NCBI GenBank assembly: GCA_001829005.1
Contig: MIAG01000001.1
Coordinates: 709,007-773,006 of the forward strand
Origin: Sphingobacteriia bacterium RIFOXYC2_FULL_35_18
GTDB taxonomy: Bacteria > Bacteroidota > Bacteroidia > Chitinophagales > Chitinophagaceae
Reading direction: 5' to 3'
DNA: 64,000 bases
The notes beneath the pieces are model-generated. The model made no database searches and was not told the origin of the DNA. It worked only from the letters and a program-made list of their open reading frames with translations. Within the stretch, counting starts at the first letter, position 1. Each line of letters starts with the position of its first letter. Below, piece after piece: positions 1 to 13,605 of the stretch. Both the position numbers and the translations under genes were made by a program.

Positions 1-762
1 GCTAAGCAGTGGTGTGTACTCTGCTTAATGGTACAGGCTGTTTTATTGGCTGAAGGAATATTGGTTATAACAAATAACAGTTTTTCATTTTCTGAGACAA
101 AGGAAGCATTTGCAAACAATTTTATTTTGGCGCTATACGCTTTATTAATACCATCAATATCTTGGTTTTTGGTAAAGCCTTTGTTAAAAAGATTGCAGGT
201 AGCTAAGTACGAAAAGAGAAGTTATTCAATGCTAAAGTTTAACGATCAAGTATTTTGGTCATTGCTTAAAACTCAGCCATCCATTGTTGATCATTCTACA
301 AGTGAATTGGGTATAACTATTGGTAACCCCAATGCAAAACATACTATTATCAAAGTTTGCAATCCTTATTGTGGCCCTTGCGCAACAGCACATCCTGAGT
401 TAGAGAAAATTATTGAACTAAACCATGATGTAAAAGCACAAATCATTTTTACAGCAACTAATCAGGAGAATGATAGAGGTGCAAAACCAGTTAAACATTT
501 ATTAGCTATTGCTGAAAAAGGCAATGAACATATTACTCATAAAGCATTAGATGATTGGTATTTAGCTAAAGAAAAGAATTATGATGTTTTTGCCAACAAA
601 TACCCAATGAATGCAGAACTAGATAAACAAACAGACAAAATCAATCAAATGAAAGATTGGTGTGAAAAGGTGAAAATCGAATACACTCCAACTATTTTTA
701 TTGATGGTTTTCTATTACCAAAAGGATATCAAATAAAGGACATTAATTATTTTCTTTCATGA
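1..762 (+). CDS. VKOR-thioredoxin fusion protein, C-terminal part (5' end lies outside the window); paralog of 2752..4356
   Basis: Frame 1 is open from nt 1. It starts AKQWCVLCL (the VKOR CXXC helix), followed by one more hydrophobic helix and a thioredoxin/DsbA-like domain with CNPYCGPC. By eye there are about 30 substitutions over about 253 aligned residues against the C-terminus of 2752..4356. Confidence 0.85.
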   Translation, partial: AKQWCVLCLMVQAVLLAEGILVITNNSFSFSETKEAFANNFILALYALLIPSISWFLVKPLLKRLQVAKYEKRSYSMLKFNDQVFWSLLKTQPSIVDHSTSELGITIGNPNAKHTIIKVCNPYCGPCATAHPELEKIIELNHDVKAQIIFTATNQENDRGAKPVKHLLAIAEKGNEHITHKALDDWYLAKEKNYDVFANKYPMNAELDKQTDKINQMKDWCEKVKIEYTPTIFIDGFLLPKGYQIKDINYFLS

Positions 763-885
763 AAAAGAAAAAACATATTTCTTTTCGACTAGTACCCGAA
801 AAGAAAAGCCAAATGGTACTACACTTTATCGCGAATGAGTGGTTTGGCAAGCCAATAATCTGCTGATGCTTAAAGCTGCAGAAAC
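763..885 (+). repeat. Duplicated intergenic element, copy A (between the VKOR-fusion stop and the precursor gene)
   Basis: Aligns with 4357..4478. Two near-identical blocks (cgactagtacccgaaaagaaaNgccaaatggtactacactt and agtggtttggcNagccaataatctgctgatgct) flank a diverged patch. It contains inverted repeats TAGTACC(790..796)/GGTACTA(815..821) and TTGGC-N2-GCCAA (844..855). Confidence 0.5.
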
Positions 886-1139: not shown

Positions 1140-1184
1140 AATCAAAAATGATATAAGTGAAGAATACTTATATCATTTTTGATT
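1140..1184 (+). terminator. 19-bp perfect A/T-rich hairpin directly after precursor P1 (partial terminator or processing site)
   Basis: aatcaaaaatgatataagt-gaagaat-acttatatcatttttgatt. It ends in a T-rich run 14 nt before the ATG of 1199..2266. Confidence 0.5.
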
Positions 1185-1198
1185 TTAAATAAAATTTC

Positions 1199-2266
1199 AT
1201 GAATTTCATTATTGCTTTTTTAATGGTTTTGTTTACTAATTTTTCATTGTACTCACAAACCACAGATATTTCGATAAGTGGTAAAATTAATGGCACATAC
1301 CCTGATAAAATATTTTTATTTTTTGATGGAAATATAAATGCTAAAGATAGTCTAAGTTCAGTAATTGCAAATGGGCACTTCCAGTTTAATCTAAAAACAA
1401 AACTTCCAATATTATGTAGATTACATTTTAGCGAAAACACTAATATAGTTGAATTTTATATCGATAACCCAACTACATTAATTTACTTGAATAGTAAAAT
1501 TGAAACCAATAGTGAGAATAAAACAAAACGTACATATTTTGAACTTGACAGTATTAAGGGATCAGTTATCGAAGTCAATAGGCAGTTATTCGAAAAATCC
1601 TTAGCGAAAGTAGAAACACTTAATATTTCTACTATAGAAAAAAGAAATTTGCATTATAATTTATTAGATAGTTTTATCACAAAAAATCCTAAAAGCAAAC
1701 TTGCACTATACTTTTTGGCAACAAATAAAATTCTTTCTTTAAATCAAATTAACCTTCTAAAATCAAATTTTGATACTAGTCTTTTATCATCTTATGAAGG
1801 ACAAAAACTAAATCGATCAATAATATCGCTATTGCGCTTAAAAAATAGATTGATAGGAGAGCAATTTCACCATGTTAGTCTTCCAGATAAATTTGGAAAA
1901 AAGATTGAAACTTCAATATATGCTGGTAAAATTGTTTTAATAAATTTTTGGGCTTCCTGGTGCGCTCCATGTAGGGAAAAGCATCCAGAAGTAGTCAAAT
2001 TATTTAATTCTTATAAAAGATCTCAATTTGATATTATTGGTATTTCCTTTGATGATAATCTAGAATATTGGAGAGCAGCTGTAGTAAAGGATAAGATAAA
2101 ATGGTTACAGTTAATTGACACGAAATATACATATGGTACACTTTCTTCCTATTATGATATAAAAGGAGTGCCATCAAATATCCTTATTAATAGAGATGGA
2201 AAAATTTTGGGCTTTGATTTAACAAATCAAGAAATCAAAAAATTTACTGATGATAATCTTAAATAA
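1199..2266 (+). CDS. Secreted TlpA/redoxin-like thioredoxin-fold protein with an N-terminal DUF4369-like domain
   Basis: Signal-like N-terminus MNFIIAFLMVLFTNFSLYSQ. The C-terminal thioredoxin fold has NFWASWCAPC and the cis-Pro loop GVPSNILI. Confidence 0.85.
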   Translation: MNFIIAFLMVLFTNFSLYSQTTDISISGKINGTYPDKIFLFFDGNINAKDSLSSVIANGHFQFNLKTKLPILCRLHFSENTNIVEFYIDNPTTLIYLNSKIETNSENKTKRTYFELDSIKGSVIEVNRQLFEKSLAKVETLNISTIEKRNLHYNLLDSFITKNPKSKLALYFLATNKILSLNQINLLKSNFDTSLLSSYEGQKLNRSIISLLRLKNRLIGEQFHHVSLPDKFGKKIETSIYAGKIVLINFWASWCAPCREKHPEVVKLFNSYKRSQFDIIGISFDDNLEYWRAAVVKDKIKWLQLIDTKYTYGTLSSYYDIKGVPSNILINRDGKILGFDLTNQEIKKFTDDNLK

Positions 2267-2423
2267 TAGAACAGAATATTAATAACAAAGTCCTTCTAGT
2301 TAGAACCTAGCGTTTTTGGTTAATACTGAGGTTGAATTGTAAGTCCCCCAAATATTAAACAGTTTTATTTAGAGTGTAGTCATTTTTAGTATGGTTGGAT
2401 TTTTTTAAAATCATATTACTATT

Positions 2424-2577
2424 GCGCCCCCACCTGCCTCTATATGATAAGTAGGTACTATGGTCGTGTGTTAATTTTCAAACATCTGGGTTAAAGTTGA
2501 GTTTTGAAAAACTAATAGAAGAAGCTCCAAAGCCTGTAAATCTTCATTGGGGTTTAAACATTCAATTGTTTAGCAAA
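2424..2577 (+). pseudogene. Decayed remnant of the 5' end (C39 domain) of a second ABC exporter gene
   Basis: Nucleotide similarity to 6180..6405 (tatatgataagtaggtaYtatggtcgtgtg...ttttcaaacatctgggttaaagttRagttttgaaaaa...gaagaagc). There are internal deletions and a frameshift leading to a stop. A short stretch just after it resembles the HlyD 3' end. Confidence 0.7.
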
Positions 2578-2632: not shown

Positions 2633-2674
2633 TTGATTTGATTTTTACATCTGAAAATAGCTTTCAATAATCAT

Positions 2675-2714
2675 CGGGGGGTAAAAATACCCCCCGCTGA
2701 TTTTTTTTATTTTG
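2675..2714 (+). terminator. Rho-independent terminator-like hairpin CGGGGGGTA-AAAA-TACCCCCCG plus T-tract
   Basis: 9-bp G/C-rich stem followed by ctgattttttttatttt. It is nearly identical to the element after the HlyD gene at 9743. Confidence 0.6.
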
Positions 2715-2751: not shown

Positions 2752-4356
2752 ATGTTAACTGGTGTTTTATTTAATAGTTTACATGAAAATCAACCATTAA
2801 TTGTTGCCGCTTTATTAAAGGGATTAAAAGTGAACGTAAGCATGGAAACGATTAATGATACATTACAATCGCATCCCGACTATCCAAGCTTTTTATCTAT
2901 TTCAGATTCATTGAATAATTGGAAGGTTGAAAATCTGGTTATTCAAACTTCGGTAGAAAAATTATCAGAGATTCCCACACCATTTATTACAAGCTTTAAA
3001 AAAGGTGTTTTTGTAGGAGTATTAGAAGTTCTAGAAAATGAGCTAGTTATTGTAAACCAACAAGGCAAAAAAGAAACGATTGCTAAAAATGTATTTTTAT
3101 CTCAATGGACTGAAAACTTCTTAGTTGCTGAAGCAAATGAGTTTTCTGGAGAAATCAATTACCAACAAAAGATTAATGCTACTAGTGTAAAAACGGTTGT
3201 TTATAGTTTAATCCCACTAGGAATTTTGACTTCTTTATTCATTCCATACTTGAATGGTTCCATTACCCTTTTGCCCACATTGTATTTATTGGTGAAGTTA
3301 ATAGGTTTAACTGCATCTGTACTACTACTATGGTATGATATAGATAAAGGCAACCCTTTATTAAAACAAATCTGTTCAGGTATACAAAAAGCCAATTGCA
3401 GTGCTGTCTTAAATACCAAAGCTGCATCGCTAGGGGGCATAGTAACGTGGAGTGAAGTTGGCTTTGTATATTTTGCAGGGTCATTATTATTCTCAGCGAC
3501 CTCTGGTATTAGTAAGGTATTGCCTGTTTTAAGTATAATCTCCTTATTAGCCCTGCCTTATATCATTTTCTCTATTTATTACCAGTGGAAAGTAGCCAAG
3601 CAGTGGTGTGTACTCTGCTTAATGGTTCAGGCTGTTTTATTGGCTGAAGGAATATTGGTTATAGCAAATAACAGTTTATCATTTTCTGAGACAACAGCAG
3701 CATTTGCAAACAATTTCATTTTTGCACTTTACGCTTTACTCATTCCCACAATATTTTGGTTTTTATTAAAGCCATTGTTGAAAAGATTACAGATTGCTAA
3801 GTACGAAAAGAGAAGTTATTTAATGCTTAAGTTTAACGATGATGTATTTTGGTCATTGCTTAAAAATCAGCCATCTATTGTTGATCATTCTACAAGTGAA
3901 TTGGGTATAACTATTGGTAACCCCAATGCAAAACATACTATTATCAAAGTTTGCAATCCTTATTGTGGGCCATGTGCAACAGCACATCCTGATATTGAAA
4001 AGATTATTGAGAGTAATCCAGAGGTTAAAGCTCAAATTATTTTTACTACAACAAATCACGAGAATGACCGTGGTGCAAAACCTGTTAAACATTTATTAGC
4101 TGTATCTGAAAAAGGAGATGAAAATCTCACCAAAAATGCGCTTGACGATTGGTATTTGGCTAAAGAAAAAAGTTATGATGTTTTTGCCAACAAATACCCA
4201 ATGAATGGAGAAATAGATAAACAAACGGACAAAATCGACCAAATGAAAGAATGGTGTGAAAAAGTGAAAATTGAATACACTCCAACTATTTTTATTGATG
4301 GTTTTTTATTACCAAAAGGATATCAAATAAAGGACATCAATTATTTTCTTTCATGA
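2752..4356 (+). CDS. Three-domain fusion: non-catalytic C39-like domain + VKOR (vitamin K epoxide reductase family) + thioredoxin/DsbA-like domain
   Basis: The N-terminal ~130 aa align with the C39 domain of 6103..8391 (ISDSLNNWKVENLVIQTSVEKLSEIPTPFITSF vs ISDAAEKIGFQTSGLKLSFEKLIEEAPKPAILHW) but lack the catalytic Cys and His. The VKOR loop Cys pair is CSGIQKANC and the membrane CXXC is WCVLC. The C-terminal domain has CNPYCGPC. Confidence 0.85.
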   Translation: MLTGVLFNSLHENQPLIVAALLKGLKVNVSMETINDTLQSHPDYPSFLSISDSLNNWKVENLVIQTSVEKLSEIPTPFITSFKKGVFVGVLEVLENELVIVNQQGKKETIAKNVFLSQWTENFLVAEANEFSGEINYQQKINATSVKTVVYSLIPLGILTSLFIPYLNGSITLLPTLYLLVKLIGLTASVLLLWYDIDKGNPLLKQICSGIQKANCSAVLNTKAASLGGIVTWSEVGFVYFAGSLLFSATSGISKVLPVLSIISLLALPYIIFSIYYQWKVAKQWCVLCLMVQAVLLAEGILVIANNSLSFSETTAAFANNFIFALYALLIPTIFWFLLKPLLKRLQIAKYEKRSYLMLKFNDDVFWSLLKNQPSIVDHSTSELGITIGNPNAKHTIIKVCNPYCGPCATAHPDIEKIIESNPEVKAQIIFTTTNHENDRGAKPVKHLLAVSEKGDENLTKNALDDWYLAKEKSYDVFANKYPMNGEIDKQTDKIDQMKEWCEKVKIEYTPTIFIDGFLLPKGYQIKDINYFLS

Positions 4357-4478
4357 GAAAGAATAATCATATTTTTTTCGACTAGTACCCGAAAAGAAAT
4401 GCCAAATGGTACTACACTTGGTGATCAACAAGTGGTTTGGCGAGCCAATAATCTGCTGATGCTATAAGCTGCAGAAAC
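4357..4478 (+). repeat. Duplicated intergenic element, copy B
   Basis: Aligns with 763..885. It includes TTGGC-N2-GCCAA at 4437..4448. Confidence 0.5.
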
Positions 4479-4731: not shown

Positions 4732-4735
4732 TTTT

Positions 4736-4766
4736 ATGCCGACTATTTTAGTCGGCATACTTTTTT
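4736..4766 (+). terminator. Rho-independent terminator directly after P2
   Basis: atgccgacta-ttt-tagtcggcat followed by acTTTTTT, 5 nt after the stop codon. Confidence 0.75.
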
Positions 4767-6102: not shown

Positions 6103-8391
6103 GTGAAAACATATATTAACTCAAGCTTTATTAAACAAAACTTCTTTTTCTACCCTCAACAAAACCAAATGGACTGCGGTCCTACTTGTTTGTATATGAT
6201 AAGTAGGTATTATGGTCGTGTGTTTGCATTAGAGAAGCTAAGGGAGTTAACAGAGATAGGTAAGGAGGGTGTTAATTTATTAGGTATTAGTGATGCTGCT
6301 GAAAAGATAGGTTTTCAAACATCTGGGTTAAAGTTAAGTTTTGAAAAATTAATTGAAGAAGCGCCAAAACCCGCAATACTGCATTGGGGGCAAAACCATT
6401 TCATTGTTTTACCACCACAAAAGAGGGCTTTTTTTTCAAAGCCAAAAAACATAATAATAGCTGATCCCGCTAAAGGGATTATTACCATCAGCAAAGAGCT
6501 GTTCTTACAAAAATGGATAAGTGATAAAAATGAGGATGGGGAGTCTACCGGTATTGCCTTAATTCTAGAGCCTGGACAAAACTTTTATAATGCCAATTAC
6601 GGGCATGATTTTAAAGAGTTAACAAACAACCATGCTAACCAACTTTGGGGTTATATAAAGCCACATAAAAAACTGGTATTCCAACTTTTCTTAGGGGTCA
6701 TGCTGGGTAGTTTATTGCAATTGGTATTTCCTTTTCTCACACAAAGTGTAGTTGATGTTGGTATCAACACTCAAAATATTCAATTTGTATATATTGTTTT
6801 ATTAGCTCAACTGGCTTTGTTTATTGGGCGTTTGGGAGTAGAATTTATTCGCAGTTGGATTTTATACCATATCAGTAGTCGAATCAATATTTCTATTCTT
6901 ACGGGTTTTTTGATAAAGCTGATGAAATTGCCATTGGCTTATTTTGATAGCAAAAAAACAGGGGATATTCTTCAAAGAATGAATGACCATAAACGCATTC
7001 AAAATTTCTTGACTGGAACTTCACTTAGTACTTTGTTTTCTCTATTCAATTTATTGGTTTTTTCTGTTGTGTTGCTTAATTATAGTGTACTCATTTTTGG
7101 TGTTTTTACAGCTGCTAGTGTGCTATACATTTTATGGATTTTAATCTTCTTAAAGAAAAGAAAAGAGCTTGATTACCAGCAGTTTGATATTGCTGCTGCA
7201 GAACAGAGCAGTACCATTCAATTGGTACAAGGTATGCAGGAGATTAAGTTGCATGGTAGTGAAAAACAACAAAGATGGCAATGGGAACATTTACAAGCAT
7301 CACTATTTAGGGTAGGAATGAAAGGGCTTGCATTAAATCAATGGCAACAAGCGGGTGCTTTCTTTATTAACGAGGGCAAAAATATATTCATCACATTTGT
7401 GGCAGCAACAGCAGTGATCCAAGGACAAATAACCCTTGGCGCAATGCTTGCAATTCAATATATCATTGGGCAATTAAACTCCCCAATTGAGCAAATGATT
7501 GGGTTCGTTCAAAATTGGCAATTGGCTAAAATTAGTCTGGAAAGATTGAATGAAATACATCAATTGGCCGATGAAGAACAGTTCAATTTGAACAGTGATG
7601 CTTCTTCAGCCTTGGTTACAGAGTTGCCTCAAAACCGATCTATACACCTTCAAAATATCAGCTTTACCTATCCAGGCGCTGGTAATGAGCCTGTACTTAA
7701 AAATATTTCCATGCAAATACCACAAGGAAAAGTAACAGCGATTGTAGGGTCTAGTGGCAGTGGTAAAACCACCTTACTAAAATTATTGCTCAAATTTTAT
7801 GAAGCGAAGTCTGGGGATATATATATTGGTGATCAGGCAGAATCAGCAGGTTTAAATTTGTCAAATATTAGCCATCGTGCTTGGCGTAAACAGTGTGGTG
7901 TAGTAATGCAAGACAGCTTTATTTTTTCTGATAGTATTGCTAAAAATATAGCTGTTGGGGAAGATTATCCCGATAAGGCAAGGTTAAGATATGCTGCAAA
8001 AATTGCCAATATCACTTCGTTTATCGAAAGTTTACCACTGGGTTATAATACCAAAATTGGTGCAGAAGGCACGGGGGTAAGTGCAGGGCAAAGACAAAGG
8101 ATCTTAATTGCTAGAGCTGTTTACAAAAACCCGGATCTAATTTTATTAGATGAAGCTACCAACGCATTAGATTCTAATAATGAAAGTACTATTTTAAAAA
8201 ACTTAAACTTGTTTTTTGAAGGTAAAACAGTTGTAGTGGTAGCACACCGCTTAAGCACTGTTCGTAATGCTGACCAAATAGTGGTATTACACAATGGGGT
8301 GATTACCGAGCAAGGTACACATGCTAAATTAACAGCAATGAAGGGTGAATATTTTACTTTGGTTAAAAATCAATTAGAATTAGGTGATTAA
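6103..8391 (+). CDS. Peptidase C39 domain-containing bacteriocin-type ABC exporter
   Basis: GTG start. C39 motifs QMDCGPTCLYM and NHFIVL. A six-helix membrane domain. Walker A GSSGSGKTT, signature VSAGQRQR and Walker B LILLDEAT. Confidence 0.93.
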   Translation: MKTYINSSFIKQNFFFYPQQNQMDCGPTCLYMISRYYGRVFALEKLRELTEIGKEGVNLLGISDAAEKIGFQTSGLKLSFEKLIEEAPKPAILHWGQNHFIVLPPQKRAFFSKPKNIIIADPAKGIITISKELFLQKWISDKNEDGESTGIALILEPGQNFYNANYGHDFKELTNNHANQLWGYIKPHKKLVFQLFLGVMLGSLLQLVFPFLTQSVVDVGINTQNIQFVYIVLLAQLALFIGRLGVEFIRSWILYHISSRINISILTGFLIKLMKLPLAYFDSKKTGDILQRMNDHKRIQNFLTGTSLSTLFSLFNLLVFSVVLLNYSVLIFGVFTAASVLYILWILIFLKKRKELDYQQFDIAAAEQSSTIQLVQGMQEIKLHGSEKQQRWQWEHLQASLFRVGMKGLALNQWQQAGAFFINEGKNIFITFVAATAVIQGQITLGAMLAIQYIIGQLNSPIEQMIGFVQNWQLAKISLERLNEIHQLADEEQFNLNSDASSALVTELPQNRSIHLQNISFTYPGAGNEPVLKNISMQIPQGKVTAIVGSSGSGKTTLLKLLLKFYEAKSGDIYIGDQAESAGLNLSNISHRAWRKQCGVVMQDSFIFSDSIAKNIAVGEDYPDKARLRYAAKIANITSFIESLPLGYNTKIGAEGTGVSAGQRQRILIARAVYKNPDLILLDEATNALDSNNESTILKNLNLFFEGKTVVVVAHRLSTVRNADQIVVLHNGVITEQGTHAKLTAMKGEYFTLVKNQLELGD

Positions 8392-8400
8392 AGACGAATT

Positions 8401-9738
8401 ATGCCTCAACAAGAAGAATCATATAGTTTAGATGCAATGCTCGAAGCGGCTAATATTGAACGGTTAGATGAGGCAGATCGTATTTATAGCCATGAGGTTC
8501 GCGAAATCATTAGCAGTAAACCTGTATGGATAGTAAGAAATGGCATTGCAATGTTTTTTGGCATTATTGGTTTGTTATTTACGTTAACTTTTTTTATTCA
8601 ATACCCAGATATCGTTAAAGCACCTGTAAAAATTGTTGGGGATAATTTGCCAAAACAAATTATTAGTAAATCTGAAGGACGAATTGTTTATTTAAATGCA
8701 CTTGAAAATAAAAAAGTAATTGTTGGTGACGTTTTAGCCATTTTACAAAGTAATGCAGATTACAAACAAGTGCTGTTGTTTAAAAAATGGATTGATCAAA
8801 CTGAACTTGATTTAAAAGGAAATAATTGGAATGCGATTAGCCAGTTAGCAACACTCAATCAATTGGGAGATTTACAAAAAAATTATCAAGATATTGCCCA
8901 ACAAATCTATCAACTCTCTTGGGCAAAGACTAAAGGGTACTTTAACCAAAAACGTGATGCCATTGCTCAAGACATTAGGCTGATTAATCTGTCTAAGGAG
9001 AACGCGAATAATCAAAAGCAATTGATTCTTCAAGATTTAGCAATGCAACAAGGAGTATTGGACATTAATGAAAAACTGGCTAATGAAAAAGTGATTGCAC
9101 CGCTTGATTTAATTAAGGATAAATCAACCGTATTATCTAAGAAACAACAATTAGTTCAAGTTGATGCTGCGGATATTAATCAGTCTGCTAATATTGTTGC
9201 CAAACAAAAAGAATTATTGGAAATTGAAAAGCTAAATGCGGATATCCAACAAAACTTTATTGCAGCTCTCTTTAATGCCAAAAGTGCATTGACCGAATGG
9301 TCAAATCGATACATATTAGTTGCCAGTGAAACAGGTACTTTACAATTTGCCAGTTACTTTCAAGAGAATAGTTGGATCAAAACGGGTCAAGAGCTCTTTT
9401 ATATTATTCCGAAACAACCCACCTATTTTGCAGAGCTGATTGCATCCCAACAGAATTTTGGCAAATTAAAGCAAGGTCAACAGGTGAATATTGCACTTAA
9501 TAGTTATCAACGAAATGAATTTGGTGTGTTACAAGGAACTATCATTAATATTCCGCAAGTTCCCTATAAAGACACTAGTTTCTTAATTAAGGTTAAGCTA
9601 ACTAAAGGTTTGCAAACAAATTATCAAAAGCCCATCCATTTTAGTAATAGTTTGACTGGCACTGCAGATGTCATTACAGCGGAAGCTAGTTTAGCCGATC
9701 GGTTATTGTATCAATGGAGGGGTTTGTTTGCAAGATAA
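8401..9738 (+). CDS. HlyD-family secretion adaptor (membrane fusion protein)
   Basis: Single N-terminal TM helix, a long coiled-coil middle region and a C-terminal beta domain. It lies directly after the ABC exporter gene (9-nt gap). Confidence 0.85.
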   Translation: MPQQEESYSLDAMLEAANIERLDEADRIYSHEVREIISSKPVWIVRNGIAMFFGIIGLLFTLTFFIQYPDIVKAPVKIVGDNLPKQIISKSEGRIVYLNALENKKVIVGDVLAILQSNADYKQVLLFKKWIDQTELDLKGNNWNAISQLATLNQLGDLQKNYQDIAQQIYQLSWAKTKGYFNQKRDAIAQDIRLINLSKENANNQKQLILQDLAMQQGVLDINEKLANEKVIAPLDLIKDKSTVLSKKQQLVQVDAADINQSANIVAKQKELLEIEKLNADIQQNFIAALFNAKSALTEWSNRYILVASETGTLQFASYFQENSWIKTGQELFYIIPKQPTYFAELIASQQNFGKLKQGQQVNIALNSYQRNEFGVLQGTIINIPQVPYKDTSFLIKVKLTKGLQTNYQKPIHFSNSLTGTADVITAEASLADRLLYQWRGLFAR

Positions 9739-9742
9739 TTTT

Positions 9743-9774
9743 CGGGGGGTAAAAATACCCCCCGGTATTATTTT
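9743..9774 (+). terminator. Rho-independent terminator CGGGGGGTA-AAAA-TACCCCCCG plus T-rich tail
   Basis: Begins 4 nt after the HlyD stop. It is the same element as at 2675. Confidence 0.7.
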
Positions 9775-10660: not shown

Positions 10661-11143
10661 ATGCAAACAAAGCAGGGACACCATAATAGTACCTATATTC
10701 GGAAATACTATACTGTAAAATCCCGCAATCGTTTGTGTTGTTTTTTTGAGAAGCGGTATGTTGTCAAAAGCATATTTGCTTTATTGTGCTTCTACTTTTT
10801 TAGTTGCCGTTCAAGCCAATACAAAAAAGACTATATCAATAAAAGAGGTGAACGAGTTTTTACTGATTACAATAATAATCGTACAATTATATTTTCAGGC
10901 GAAGCTGCAAAATTAAATGCCATACTACGGAAAGATCAATTTCTTGATACTGTTTCCTTTCGGGAATTGAAAAAAAGAATCAATGTATACGAACGATTTA
11001 TTGCTTTACATCCTGACTCAATTATTGTAAGACAAACTGACTTTCCTCAGAAATTAACTCAGATTGACTCGTTTTATGTAAACAAGTATAAAATAAAGTA
11101 CTTAAAACGAAATAAGATTACATCTCCAAATATTCATTTCTAA
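10661..11143 (+). CDS. Hypothetical protein (possible membrane-anchored or lipoprotein; start uncertain)
   Basis: 160-aa ORF with a hydrophobic segment SIFALLCFYFFSC near the N-terminus. I recognise no family. Confidence 0.45.
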   Translation: MQTKQGHHNSTYIRKYYTVKSRNRLCCFFEKRYVVKSIFALLCFYFFSCRSSQYKKDYINKRGERVFTDYNNNRTIIFSGEAAKLNAILRKDQFLDTVSFRELKKRINVYERFIALHPDSIIVRQTDFPQKLTQIDSFYVNKYKIKYLKRNKITSPNIHF

Positions 11144-11177: not shown

Positions 11178-12398
11178 ATGTTAAAAACGATAATTAGCAA
11201 ATTAAGAATTAGTATTATAACTTCAGTTCTCTTGCTAATTAATTCAGTATTCCTTCAATTAGCTGTAAAGGGAAATCCTATCAATGTATACAATAATTCA
11301 CTTTTGAATAAAAATTGTGTATCACAGGATAGTCTTATTTATTTTAAAATCATTGATTCTATTTCAAAGGAAACTATTCCATTTGCAACAATCATTTTTA
11401 TTGAGAATGACACAAATAAAATGTCTATTGTTTCAAATGAAGATGGCTCATTTTCTATTCCCAATTCAAGCTTCCCCAAAAAGGTAAAAATTTCTGCAGT
11501 TGGTTATGAAGAACAACTGTTTTATTTGTTTCATGTTAATCGGTTGCTTTTGAAGCCATTAAAGAGCTTATTACCTGAAATTATCGTTAGAAGTAAGGCA
11601 ATGAAATCAAGGAGCGCAAACGCAATAATTAAACAGGTAGCTAATCGCTTTGAGGATAACTATGGCAATTTTTCTTTTAGTCAAAATTTAAAATTTTCCT
11701 CAGTAATTTATAATTACGACACTTTAAAAGAAAAGGCTGAAGAATTTGTAAAGGTATATTATCGAAATGCTGATAAAAGCATGAAATCTCCAAATTGGAT
11801 TAAAGACACTTTATATCAGGATAAACTTTTCACCAATTTTATTGGAGTTTCCCGATTATGTACAGGTGATATTATTCCATGGTTTGATATGCTGCGAAAA
11901 GGGTTGCCAATTGACGGAAATAATAATAAAGGATTAGACTTTAAACTTATTTCCAAATACAAGGATGAAAAATATGGTCTTGTTTATATTGTAAGTTTCA
12001 TGCCAAATAAATCTTTTAAAGATTCATTTTTAGGTCGAACTGTTGGAGGATTAGCAAGAGGATACCTGAAAGGAGAAATCAGGATAAGAGAATTAGATTA
12101 TTCAATTATTAGATTGAAGTATGTCTGGGAAATGAAAGTTGAATCTCTCAATAGAGGTACAACCAATTTATTTCATACTAAAACATGGAAAGCAAATCGT
12201 GTTACAAAAATGATATCAGATAAAATATTTTACAAGTATGATTATATGTATTATAAGGATGTTCATACTGGTAAATACTTTATTGACTCAATCAATGCGG
12301 AATGCTTTAATTCAGGATATCAAATCGAAACTAATCGCAACTTACTTTTAAACATAAAATTTAATGTTAGTAATAATGGAATTGAGATAGATAAATAA
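11178..12398 (+). CDS. Hypothetical secreted/membrane protein with a carboxypeptidase-regulatory-like (CarboxypepD_reg) beta-sandwich domain
   Basis: N-terminal hydrophobic helix. The segment FKIIDSISKETIPFATIIF...DGSFSIP...ISAVGYEE is typical of CarboxypepD_reg domains. Confidence 0.6.
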   Translation: MLKTIISKLRISIITSVLLLINSVFLQLAVKGNPINVYNNSLLNKNCVSQDSLIYFKIIDSISKETIPFATIIFIENDTNKMSIVSNEDGSFSIPNSSFPKKVKISAVGYEEQLFYLFHVNRLLLKPLKSLLPEIIVRSKAMKSRSANAIIKQVANRFEDNYGNFSFSQNLKFSSVIYNYDTLKEKAEEFVKVYYRNADKSMKSPNWIKDTLYQDKLFTNFIGVSRLCTGDIIPWFDMLRKGLPIDGNNNKGLDFKLISKYKDEKYGLVYIVSFMPNKSFKDSFLGRTVGGLARGYLKGEIRIRELDYSIIRLKYVWEMKVESLNRGTTNLFHTKTWKANRVTKMISDKIFYKYDYMYYKDVHTGKYFIDSINAECFNSGYQIETNRNLLLNIKFNVSNNGIEIDK

Positions 12399-12414: not shown

Positions 12415-13605
12415 TTAATACATAAACCCAAATAGCCATAACGGAATTTTGGTTCCAATTCCTATTTCAATTTCATCTGCTACAATGATGTGTTTTTCAG
12501 TTGCTTTCACTTGTTTAGCCGTTTTATTTTTTCCGCCTACTTCTATATGATAGCCTTCTGTCAAGAAATCACCTTCTTTAGGCGCAGATACAACCAAACC
12601 AGCATTTTGCAATTGATTAAAGAGAAATGTCTCCCTTAAATTACCTATATCTGGGGAACTCGTTAATGCGTATGATAGATTCGTATTCTCTAAATAGATC
12701 TTTTCCGGTTTTTGCAAAGTTGAAATTCCTTTCCCCGAGGCTTGTAAGGTGTTGATTATTCTTGCCTGTGTTAGTTGAGATATATAAGTATAAAGACTGT
12801 CTCTACTTATGTCTAATTTTTGCGCTAATGCACTAATATTTGGTTTGAATGGAATCGACTCTGCAATTACAGCAATTAATTTTTTCACTTTTAGCGCAGT
12901 GCCTGGTCCATAAGATGCAATAAATGCTAAATCTGTTTCAATTACTGCATTGATGATTTGATTCAGCTTTATAGGATATTCTTTTTCACCTTCCGCTGTA
13001 ATGGGCAAATAACCATACTGTAAATATTTTTTGAATAGCGGTAGGGGGTGTAGGTCTTCTGTTATTTTAACTGCTATTTGGTGATGATTTTTTAGTAAGT
13101 CTTTAAACGAATAAGCTTTTAATTTTTGTTGTGTTGAAAACTCTATGAACTCTCTAAATGATAATCCTGCTAAACTATAATGAATCACTCTTCTGCTTAA
13201 ATCGGCTTCTCCTCTATATATATCTAGTGCACTTGAGGCGGAGAATATTATTTTTAAATCGGCAAACCCATCATAAATATTTTTTAATTCTCTTGACCAA
13301 TTCGGATACTTATGAACTTCGTCAATTATTAAAATACGCCCTCCCAATTTATACCAATCTTCTGCAGTTTCTAGTAAAGAGTGATTATAAAACCATGTAT
13401 GATCTGCTGTTACATACAGCGCATTTGCTGGTTGTTTTAAATCAAATTTTAAATATTGTAGTAATAAGGTTGTTTTGCCAGAACCCCTTGGGCCTTTAAT
13501 ACCAATCATTCGTTGGTTCCAATTAATATTGGCATGTAGGTACCTGCGAAAATTATTGTGAATGCCTTTTAATAAGCCAGCCTGAAAACTAAATAGGGTT
13601 TCCAT
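12415..13605 (-). CDS. AAA-family ATPase (AAA_14/DUF4143-type ATP-binding protein)
   Basis: Walker A GPRGSGKTTLL and Walker B ILIIDEVH. The size and C-terminal region are typical of DUF4143 proteins. Confidence 0.8.
   Translation of the reverse strand: METLFSFQAGLLKGIHNNFRRYLHANINWNQRMIGIKGPRGSGKTTLLLQYLKFDLKQPANALYVTADHTWFYNHSLLETAEDWYKLGGRILIIDEVHKYPNWSRELKNIYDGFADLKIIFSASSALDIYRGEADLSRRVIHYSLAGLSFREFIEFSTQQKLKAYSFKDLLKNHHQIAVKITEDLHPLPLFKKYLQYGYLPITAEGEKEYPIKLNQIINAVIETDLAFIASYGPGTALKVKKLIAVIAESIPFKPNISALAQKLDISRDSLYTYISQLTQARIINTLQASGKGISTLQKPEKIYLENTNLSYALTSSPDIGNLRETFLFNQLQNAGLVVSAPKEGDFLTEGYHIEVGGKNKTAKQVKATEKHIIVADEIEIGIGTKIPLWLFGFMY

Follow-up and report, generated by a model that had tools for sequence, protein, structure and literature searches.

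Cognate pairing of Cys-rich GG-leader peptides with TlpA-like thioredoxin-fold proteins in Chitinophagaceae: possible peptide-specific disulfide partners

Dedicated thioredoxin-fold genes are already known from bacteriocin loci. In Gram-positive operons such as those for sublancin (BdbA/BdbB), pediocin (PedC) and thermophilin (BlpG-St), a thioredoxin-fold or DsbB-type protein encoded in the locus ensures that the disulfides of an exported double-glycine (GG)-leader peptide are formed correctly; DsbB/VKOR-DsbA oxidation together with DsbD-DsbC isomerisation provides an oxidase and a reduced CxxC partner where several non-consecutive disulfides have to be made, and in cone snails venom-specific paralogues of protein disulfide isomerase (PDI) diversify alongside hypervariable Cys-rich toxins. 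The bacteroidetocin (class IIf) loci of Bacteroidales encode a protein with five transmembrane (TM) segments, a GG peptide, a thiol oxidoreductase and a C39 ATP-binding cassette (ABC) exporter (Coyne et al. 2019, PMC6671954). Deletion of the oxidoreductase attenuates the toxin and its expression in trans is not protective (PMC6671954), and producers intoxicate themselves (PMC6671954; Matano et al. 2021, PMC8546649). Here we analyse a stretch of 64,000 nucleotides (nt) from the Chitinophagaceae member Sphingobacteriia bacterium RIFOXYC2_FULL_35_18 (contig MIAG01000001.1), referred to throughout as the window, in which each of three GG-leader precursors (P1, P2 and P3) adjoins a distinct, probably exported TlpA-like thioredoxin-fold protein (Tlp1, Tlp2 and Tlp3). 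The gene content suggests a Bacteroidota class-II-type (bacteroidetocin-like) peptide toxin locus, probably of Sediminibacterium type, the peptides being putative toxins. The reading that we tentatively favour is maturation: each Tlp would serve its neighbouring peptide as a specific oxidoreductase or isomerase, alongside a VKOR oxidase.

A genome scan with the VKOR fusion protein of the window recovered 27 loci, most of them from Sediminibacterium or other Chitinophagaceae, and further loci came from context look-ups and plasmids. The pairing was assessed in about 30 loci (given L numbers) from Sediminibacterium and other Bacteroidota. The loci were annotated with local BLAST and hidden Markov model (HMM) searches, and cores and partners were clustered separately. 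The gene order in nearly every locus is VKOR, GG peptide, a thioredoxin-fold protein of 190-500 amino acids (aa), ABC exporter and HlyD, followed by more peptide/Tlp units. The leader is conserved (consensus MKxKxxNLGxxLSRDAQKKxxGG) and the cores are hypervariable, with 4-10 Cys. A thioredoxin-fold CxxC protein lies beside 37 of the 44 peptides with an assessable neighbour, so that the adjacency noticed in the original prediction for the window proves to be conserved across genomes. That prediction had also proposed a one-to-one cognate pairing with divergent partner domains, and indeed core clusters and Tlp clusters correspond one to one, with the same pairs recurring across positions and genomes. 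P1-type cores accompany Tlp1-type partners in the window, L001, L011, L023 and L054, and P1 orthologues (63-98% identity) always adjoin Tlp1 orthologues; in L011, from Sediminibacterium sp. C3, the P1 and Tlp1 pair is 97-98% identical. P2 occurs with Tlp2 in the window, and an identical pair is present in L034 and L035; Tlp3 is followed by P3 in the window and in L017 (Tlp3 45% and P3 54% identity); cores of cluster C01 go with partners of cluster T02 in three genomes (L005, L009 and L010); and C02 cores (for example in L006 and L007) and C06 cores each have their own distinct T00 subgroup. The same pair is found in varying slots, 3' of VKOR, of another Tlp or of HlyD. Across 26 representative partners with a mean identity of 15%, neither active-site Cys ever varies and the cis-Pro hardly does; 25 of the 26 match Redoxin/Thioredoxin_8, and a recognisable DUF4369 is present in only eight.

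These comparisons bear on whether the adjacency is incidental, the Tlps being ordinary DUF4369/TlpA housekeeping paralogues with no peptide-specific role. The very large size of the Tlp1 family would suit such a reading, as would its 30-37% identical relatives in unrelated contexts (L003, L040 and L042). However, the frequency of thioredoxin-fold neighbours beside peptides contrasts with none among the other window genes (a thioredoxin HMM had no match among window open reading frames (ORFs) outside 1-12.4 kb), the core and Tlp clusters co-vary strictly, pairs move together, and the very few members of the Tlp2 and Tlp3 families were found in such loci only. We consider incidental adjacency very improbable and, on the sequence comparisons, effectively rejected. 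The recurring pairs indicate that a peptide and its cognate Tlp form a swappable two-gene cassette between a constant VKOR oxidase gene and the ABC/HlyD pair, and that the pairing is conserved rather than a product of chance.

The VKOR-peptide-TlpA module extends beyond Chitinophagaceae, to an Emticicia plasmid (L037, Cytophagales, three units) and to Flavobacterium (L030). On a P. distasonis plasmid (L036, Bacteroidales; NZ_OY725766.1, 6980-14793), the VKOR fusion stands with a Cys-rich peptide that has a GG/AG leader and with a DUF4369-thioredoxin protein (YCSSC); genes for a LanC-family protein, for two glycosyltransferases and for a C39 ABC exporter come next. This is a putative modified-peptide variant of the module in a gut Bacteroidales. 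A further P. distasonis plasmid match (H7) was rejected as the same module, its context being unrelated and its C39 and VKOR-thioredoxin parts split. In L039 (27-3710), a 34%-identical Tlp1 relative is part of another kind of peptide-like cluster, together with two small ORFs of 42 and 80 aa and, between them in the list, an ATP-grasp (MvdD/RimK-like) protein, which hints that DUF4369-TlpA proteins have been recruited to other peptide pathways as well.

The coordinates and sizes of the three Tlp genes and their adjacency to the precursors, as first proposed, were borne out by the ORFs (Table 1). Tlp1 comprises a putative signal peptide (residues 1-20), a DUF4369 beta-sandwich (22-120), a helical bundle (123-217) and a TlpA/ResA-like thioredoxin domain (220-355), with the redox site W254-C255-A-P-C258 and cis-Pro325 in columns that are invariant in a 53-sequence alignment. 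Against the Pfam thioredoxin-fold models tested (Thioredoxin_8, Redoxin and AhpC-TSA) it scores 71.3 (Thioredoxin_8), 58.7 and 56.3 bits, with cut-offs of about 26-27, and DUF4369 is matched over residues 25-102 at 27 bits (cut-off 25). An AlphaFold2 (AF2) model built from the same alignment reached a mean predicted local distance difference test (pLDDT) of 88.5, with an N-terminal signal helix at 1-14. Foldseek found solved relatives of this model for the thioredoxin domain only: the best are 3fw2, 3fkf and 4grf, each the C-terminal domain of a Bacteroides 'thiol-disulfide oxidoreductase', followed by ResA, CcmG and TlpA, and superposition of the model on 3fw2, 3fkf and ResA gave 1.7-2.4 A. 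The Bacteroidota DUF4369 + TlpA family, of which Tlp1 is a member, is very large (167 full-length relatives); its architecture is lacking in Tlp2 (no Pfam N-domain) and Tlp3 (no N-domain). Compared with its orthologue in L001, the beta-sandwich of Tlp1 is best conserved (65% identity), ahead of the thioredoxin domain (57%) and the helical bundle (42%), and the Cys framework of P1 is preserved in parallel.

Tlp2 (21.7 bits) and Tlp3 (22.4 bits) fall just under the Pfam gathering scores and match the local thioredoxin HMM at E values of 1e-12 and 8e-06, with both Cys and the cis-Pro in register with the other partners. The active site of Tlp2 is W-C324-L-P-C327. Its N-domain is rare, with 7 matches in 5.8e9 proteins in a word-indexed search and 16 representatives in 1.84e9 in an exhaustive HMMER scan, and all full-length relatives of Tlp2 end in a WCxPC thioredoxin domain; an AF2 model from a 7-sequence alignment (pLDDT 40, N-domain <50) gave no usable N-domain fold. 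Tlp3 likely starts at Met6, leaving a bare thioredoxin domain, and a protein search yielded a single full-length relative, a cluster at 98% identity, and a short partial match, in addition to the 45% orthologue in L017. BLASTP similarity among the three is limited to 16-32 residues at the CxxC motif, in agreement with the earlier view that only the thioredoxin fold is common to them. Two further details of that view need amending: WCxPC holds for Tlp1 (WCAPC) and Tlp2 (WCLPC) while Tlp3 has TCLPC, and the N-domains of Tlp1 and Tlp2 do differ (DUF4369 versus a rare family) while Tlp3 has essentially none. The N-terminus of each Tlp is hydrophobic, with ..SQ at its end. Bacteroidetes signal peptidase I substrates typically begin with Gln, which fits this junction, and Tlp1-3 are likely exported by a signal peptide to the periplasm.

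With TlpA, ResA and CcmG (DsbE) the Tlps share the thioredoxin fold, W-C-x-P-C, the cis-Pro, an acidic residue after the motif and the best structural matches; export, a feature of those proteins, is predicted for the Tlps. However, those proteins are membrane-anchored single domains for the maturation of cytochromes and copper centres, whereas the Tlps are linked to peptide genes and carry large variable N-domains. Since NCBIfam scores lie far under the cut-offs (Tlp1 56.0 versus 230 for TlpA, NF047696, and 62.6 versus 170 for ResA, NF002854; Tlp2 and Tlp3 much lower), the Tlps are relatives rather than orthologues of TlpA and ResA.

The presumed oxidase of the locus is a fusion of a C39-like domain (window 2752-3150, ~130 aa), a VKOR domain (5 TM segments, CxxC and a loop Cys) and a Thioredoxin_4 domain (CGPC). 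The catalytic Cys of the VKOR and DsbA-like parts are all conserved in the fusion alignment, and the window protein is 92% identical to that of S. salmoneum. The C39 domain of the exporter has the catalytic Cys motif QMDCGPTC, which is absent from the C39-like part of the fusion, where no Cys occurs before residue 208; the latter probably has no catalytic role and instead binds the leader or the exporter, thereby coupling oxidation to export. Maturation by the Tlps would proceed as follows. The C39-peptidase ABC exporter would recognise the conserved leader of the precursor, cleave it at GG and let the core out of the cytoplasm. The membrane-bound fusion would then inject disulfides into the core, and the soluble exported Tlp would bind its own leaderless core, presumably through its variable N-domain, and transfer or reshuffle disulfides until 3-4 bonds are in the native pattern, acting as a peptide-dedicated isomerase or oxidoreductase-chaperone. 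In favour of this reading, the locus carries its own oxidase (VKOR plus DsbA-like domain) and no other isomerase, and its peptides have 6-8 Cys. Dependence of the Tlps on their peptides is further suggested by a frameshifted Tlp1 in L010 and by the relaxed selection on orphan copies of Tlp2 after loss of P2.

Several lines of evidence weigh against maturation as the role of the Tlps. The extreme diversification of the Tlps resembles a conflict interface, because general isomerases such as DsbC and PDI need no enzyme per substrate. DsbC is a generalist dimer with a reductant, DsbD, whereas in the window each peptide family has a partner of its own and a reductant gene is lacking; as already predicted, no CcdA/DsbD-like ORF occurs anywhere in the 64-kb window, where the other multi-TM ORFs outside the cluster encode only a sugar/MFS (major facilitator superfamily) transporter and a histidine kinase. 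For seven peptides, the Tlp slot is taken by a secreted non-thioredoxin protein. One of these is TonB-dependent-receptor-like (937 aa), and three form a single family (L015 12121-13929; L018 17478-19313 and 20293-21513) of 406-611 aa, mutually 25-33% identical, with no thioredoxin domain and no Pfam match. A hidden divergent thioredoxin domain in the non-thioredoxin partners was rejected: the HMM run with --max found no match in them, and Pfam assigned other domains or none.

Conversely, 18 Tlp genes are intact but are not accompanied by an intact peptide. Orphan Tlp2 orthologues (81-82% identity) in L007, L012, L032 and L033 begin directly after the conserved header element described below; Tlp1 orthologues in L007 and L012 adjoin a decayed P1 (L007 6511-6690, L012 6510-6689) in which GG has become DW and the first Cys Arg; one T02 copy has an upstream leader-only stump (L007 ~13450-13545) and another lies beside a C01 peptide whose start ATG has become ATA (L010 7178-7417); and T00-397, T00-384 and T03 copies have no peptide at all. 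A cognate peptide elsewhere in the locus was rejected, as tblastn with all cores found no hidden copies in these loci. The reverse case, an intact peptide with only a broken Tlp, was seen once (L005 7293). By our tally, loss of the peptide with retention of the Tlp took place on roughly 11-12 independent occasions, compared with a single reverse event, even though the Tlp is a 5-6 times larger mutational target. Typical genomes contain 1-2 intact peptides and 4-6 Tlp genes.

Pairwise Nei-Gojobori estimates of dN/dS (the ratio of nonsynonymous to synonymous substitution rates), from few sequences, range from 0.17 to 0.33 for Tlp1 overall. Between orphans the ratio is 0.13-0.14 for T00-397 (dS 0.26-0.37) and 0.19-0.21 for T03, and such constraint on peptide-less Tlps tells against maturation, because a maturase without a substrate should decay. 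For Tlp2 the ratio is 0.9-1.0 between orphans and 0.24-0.28 between the window copy and the orphans. Some orphan families are thus held by selection and at least one, Tlp2, is drifting, so that the dN/dS argument is not clean.

These patterns lend support to the main rival reading, in which the Tlps act in immunity, by reduction. A Tlp kept reduced by housekeeping CcdA/DsbD would capture its cognate toxin in the periplasm through its N-domain and reduce the disulfides of re-entering or neighbour-made peptide, which would then be unfolded, inactivated or degraded. Pneumococcal blp loci and the contact-dependent inhibition (CDI) and type VI secretion system (T6SS) islands carry orphan immunity arrays with an excess of partners, retention after toxin loss and cassette shuffling between conserved flanks. 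The peptide/Tlp cassettes have the gene order of a classical bacteriocin-immunity pair, in addition to their one-to-one co-variation, and the partners are hypervariable while the ABC exporter is highly conserved (dN/dS about 0.05). More Tlp genes than intact peptides per genome, intact orphans still behind the header, purifying selection on T00-397 and T03 orphans with no peptide hidden in the locus and the asymmetric loss would all be expected of immunity genes, as would a slot that sometimes holds unrelated secreted proteins, in the manner of diverse immunity genes. WCxPC proteins of the TlpA-ResA type are, moreover, reductive in characterised relatives. The original prediction that the locus contains no other immunity candidate overlooked two conserved genes, orf160 and orf406; no variable candidate was found elsewhere in the locus. 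In all, reductive immunity would explain the diversification, the partner excess, the constrained orphans, the loss asymmetry and the non-thioredoxin slot occupants more naturally.

Against this, known immunity proteins are, to our knowledge, not thioredoxin-fold redox enzymes, protection by a Tlp is hypothetical here, and in Gram-positive bacteriocin operons, which have one enzyme per locus and no hypervariable recognition domain, the immunity protein is separate and non-redox. No bacteriocin immunity protein with a thioredoxin fold came up in our literature searches as a precedent. In the only related experiment, the thioredoxin-fold gene of the bacteroidetocin locus was not protective, and producers self-intoxicate (PMC6671954, PMC8546649). 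Tlp2 orphans are under relaxed selection; a periplasmic reductase would be no help against a toxin that acts at the outer surface, such as bacteroidetocin A on BamA; a reductase and the co-encoded oxidase would run a futile cycle unless kept apart; and the timing of peptide loss relative to orphan divergence is uncertain, recurrent deletion between short repeats being possible. We regard an immunity function as possible, if somewhat doubtful.

To compare the window with the bacteroidetocin system, bacteroidetocin B loci were fetched from gut metagenomes via a published primer sequence; the peptide in the fetched locus reads MKKVSNKVLSRAFGG followed by KMFGSKTECERWEGGCRCRQVYYTFWVKSYGAWNPAADWQCN. 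The two systems agree in gene order (membrane protein, GG-leader Cys peptide, exported thioredoxin-fold CxxC protein, C39 ABC exporter) and in leaders of a ..LSR....GG flavour. However, the bacteroidetocin B membrane protein (221 aa, 5 TM) has no Pfam VKOR match and an hhalign probability of 0.2% against the VKOR fusion, and the oxidoreductase (173 aa, CDLC) has no N-domain and no BLAST similarity to Tlp3, and is related to the Tlps only remotely, through the thioredoxin fold (hhalign probability 89.7%, E 2e-6). The bacteroidetocin B leader has 15 aa versus 23 aa here, outside the 15-16 aa that define bacteroidetocin leaders, and its mature peptide has 4 Cys versus 6-8 here; the cores have no evident similarity, as judged short of a formal search against all 19 peptides. 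The bacteroidetocin locus has no HlyD gene, and multi-cassette arrays and orphan partners are not described there. Membership of the window system in the bacteroidetocin family was rejected, since the layout is alike while the TM protein is unrelated and the oxidoreductase remote. The precedent transfers only partly to maturation by the Tlps, because there is no VKOR in that locus, so that the small CDLC protein is probably the oxidase itself.

A sub-variant of maturation takes up this point, with a redox direction opposite to that of a TlpA-type reductant: the VKOR-thioredoxin fusion would oxidise a soluble DsbA-like Tlp, which would pass disulfides on to the peptide as a terminal oxidase shuttle. 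Being fused to VKOR, the DsbA-like domain is not free to diffuse, and in the VKOR-less bacteroidetocin locus the small thioredoxin-fold protein, remotely related to the Tlps (at the hhalign probability of 90% noted above), is the only candidate oxidase and is needed for activity. However, WCxPC with nearby acidic residues and closest structures (ResA, TlpA and CcmG) that are all reductants point the other way, and a shuttle leaves the specificity and the orphan pattern unexplained. We consider it unlikely.

The cluster occupies 1-12.4 kb of the window, all on the plus strand (Table 1).

Table 1 Features of the peptide/Tlp gene cluster at the left end of the window
Feature	Position	Strand	Evidence or remark
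C39-like-VKOR-thioredoxin (DsbA-like) fusion, first copy, 3' part cut by window edge	1-762	+	Pfam Thioredoxin_4; 87% identity to C-terminus of 2752-4356
Cassette header, ~100 nt, copy 1	780-885	+	Near-identical copies elsewhere
Precursor P1, 59 aa	936-1115	+	23-aa GG leader and 36-aa core, 6 Cys; 84 nt upstream of Tlp1
Hairpin P1/Tlp1, 20-bp AU-rich stem	1140-1184	+	-22 kcal/mol, z-score -4.9
Tlp1, 355 aa	1199-2266	+	Pfam, AF2 model, Foldseek, 53-sequence alignment
Remnant of 5' end of ABC/C39 exporter gene	2423-2571	+	84-97% identity to 6175-6409
Copy of post-hlyD terminator hairpin	2667-2707	+	88% identity to 9735-9774; terminator-like
C39-like-VKOR-Thioredoxin_4 fusion, complete, 534 aa; presumed dedicated oxidase	2752-4356	+	Pfam, conserved Cys in alignment
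Cassette header, copy 2	4373-4478	+	Sequence match to copy 1
Precursor P2, 74 aa	4507-4731	+	8 Cys in core; 47 nt upstream of Tlp2
Hairpin P2/Tlp2, 11-bp GC-containing stem and U run	4735-4759	+	z-score -6.0
Tlp2, 423 aa	4778-6049	+	Signal peptide (predicted), ~280-aa rare-family N-domain, thioredoxin domain
C39-peptidase ABC exporter (PCAT, peptidase-containing ABC transporter)	6103-8391	+	Pfam Peptidase_C39, ABC_membrane, ABC_tran
HlyD-family membrane fusion protein	8401-9738	+	Pfam HlyD_3
Tlp3, 196 aa	9792-10382	+	Signal peptide (predicted) and bare thioredoxin domain, T-C-L-P-C
Precursor P3, 78 aa	10400-10636	+	6 Cys; 18 nt downstream of Tlp3
orf160, conserved ORF, likely lipoprotein	10661-11143	+	Internal start, ..FFSC lipobox
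orf406, conserved 406-aa ORF	11178-12398	+	CarboxypepD_reg-like domain

Positions 1-885 and 3595-4478 are 89% identical, and the match ends just 5' of each peptide gene. Taken with the ABC remnant and the terminator copy, this flank match shows that a module VKOR-[peptide+Tlp]-ABC-HlyD was duplicated in tandem; copy 1 then lost ABC-HlyD by deletion. The two copies hold wholly different peptide and Tlp content inside these flanks. The S. salmoneum locus (L005, strain NBRC 103935) has 4-5 tandem VKOR-peptide-Tlp modules with ABC remnants between them. The header (…TAGTACCCGAAAAGAA.AGCCAAATGGTACTACACTTAATCGCGAATAAGTGGTTTGGCGAGCCAATAATCTGCTGATGCTTAAAGCTGCAG…) lies 5' of cassettes, including orphan Tlp genes, and copies outside the window are found at L007 8262-8372, L009 16945-17055, L006 17204-17310, L005 11623-11730 and L001 3963-4068. 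An Rfam search of window 1-12.5 kb gave no match at E <= 1, and RNAalifold predicted four stems in the header with one compensatory pair only; with no Rfam match and almost no covariation, it is not assignable as an RNA element. It may be a shared promoter, an operator, or a 5' untranslated region and recombination anchor.

Strong hairpins separate P1 from Tlp1 and P2 from Tlp2. They look like attenuator- or processing-like elements that would set the peptide:partner expression ratio; the lower partner expression that they suggest would suit a catalytic, sub-stoichiometric Tlp. At the other end of the cluster, many relatives likewise have orf160 and orf406 as conserved 3'-terminal genes of the locus, and neither is variable; their roles are possibly in general immunity, export or as a receptor. 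A LuxR-type response regulator (Response_reg + GerE) is divergently encoded directly 5' of the first VKOR gene in L009 (9169-9804, minus strand) and at the equivalent position in most Sediminibacterium loci, and is a candidate regulator of the locus; its counterpart in the window would fall beyond the left end.

Literature searches combining VKOR/C39 or TlpA with bacteriocins, and searches for DUF4369 and for thioredoxin-like immunity, did not find this system described, nor its combination of features: a VKOR-fusion oxidase together with a separate hypervariable TlpA-type partner for each peptide, cassettes shuffled between constant flanks, and arrays of orphan partners. The locus amounts to a natural library in which each peptide is matched with a redox partner while leader, exporter and oxidase stay constant, and such pairs could be useful for the heterologous production of disulfide-rich peptides and for studying how oxidative-folding specificity evolves. 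We also entertain, with some reserve, the view that the Tlps are a new class of bacteriocin immunity protein, peptide-specific periplasmic reductases whose orphan arrays would be a stockpile against the peptides of neighbours. Were this true, enzymatic reduction would be a new biochemical principle of bacteriocin self-protection and would account for the way in which Gram-negative producers escape damage from their own disulfide-rich peptides; in a lesser form, the DUF4369/TlpA paralogue family of Bacteroidota may in part be a peptide-defence or peptide-handling repertoire. A Bacteroidota genome contains dozens of largely uncharacterised TlpA-like paralogues, and the tie of the subset described here, one to one, to hypervariable, knottin-like secreted peptides gives such paralogues a concrete, testable function.

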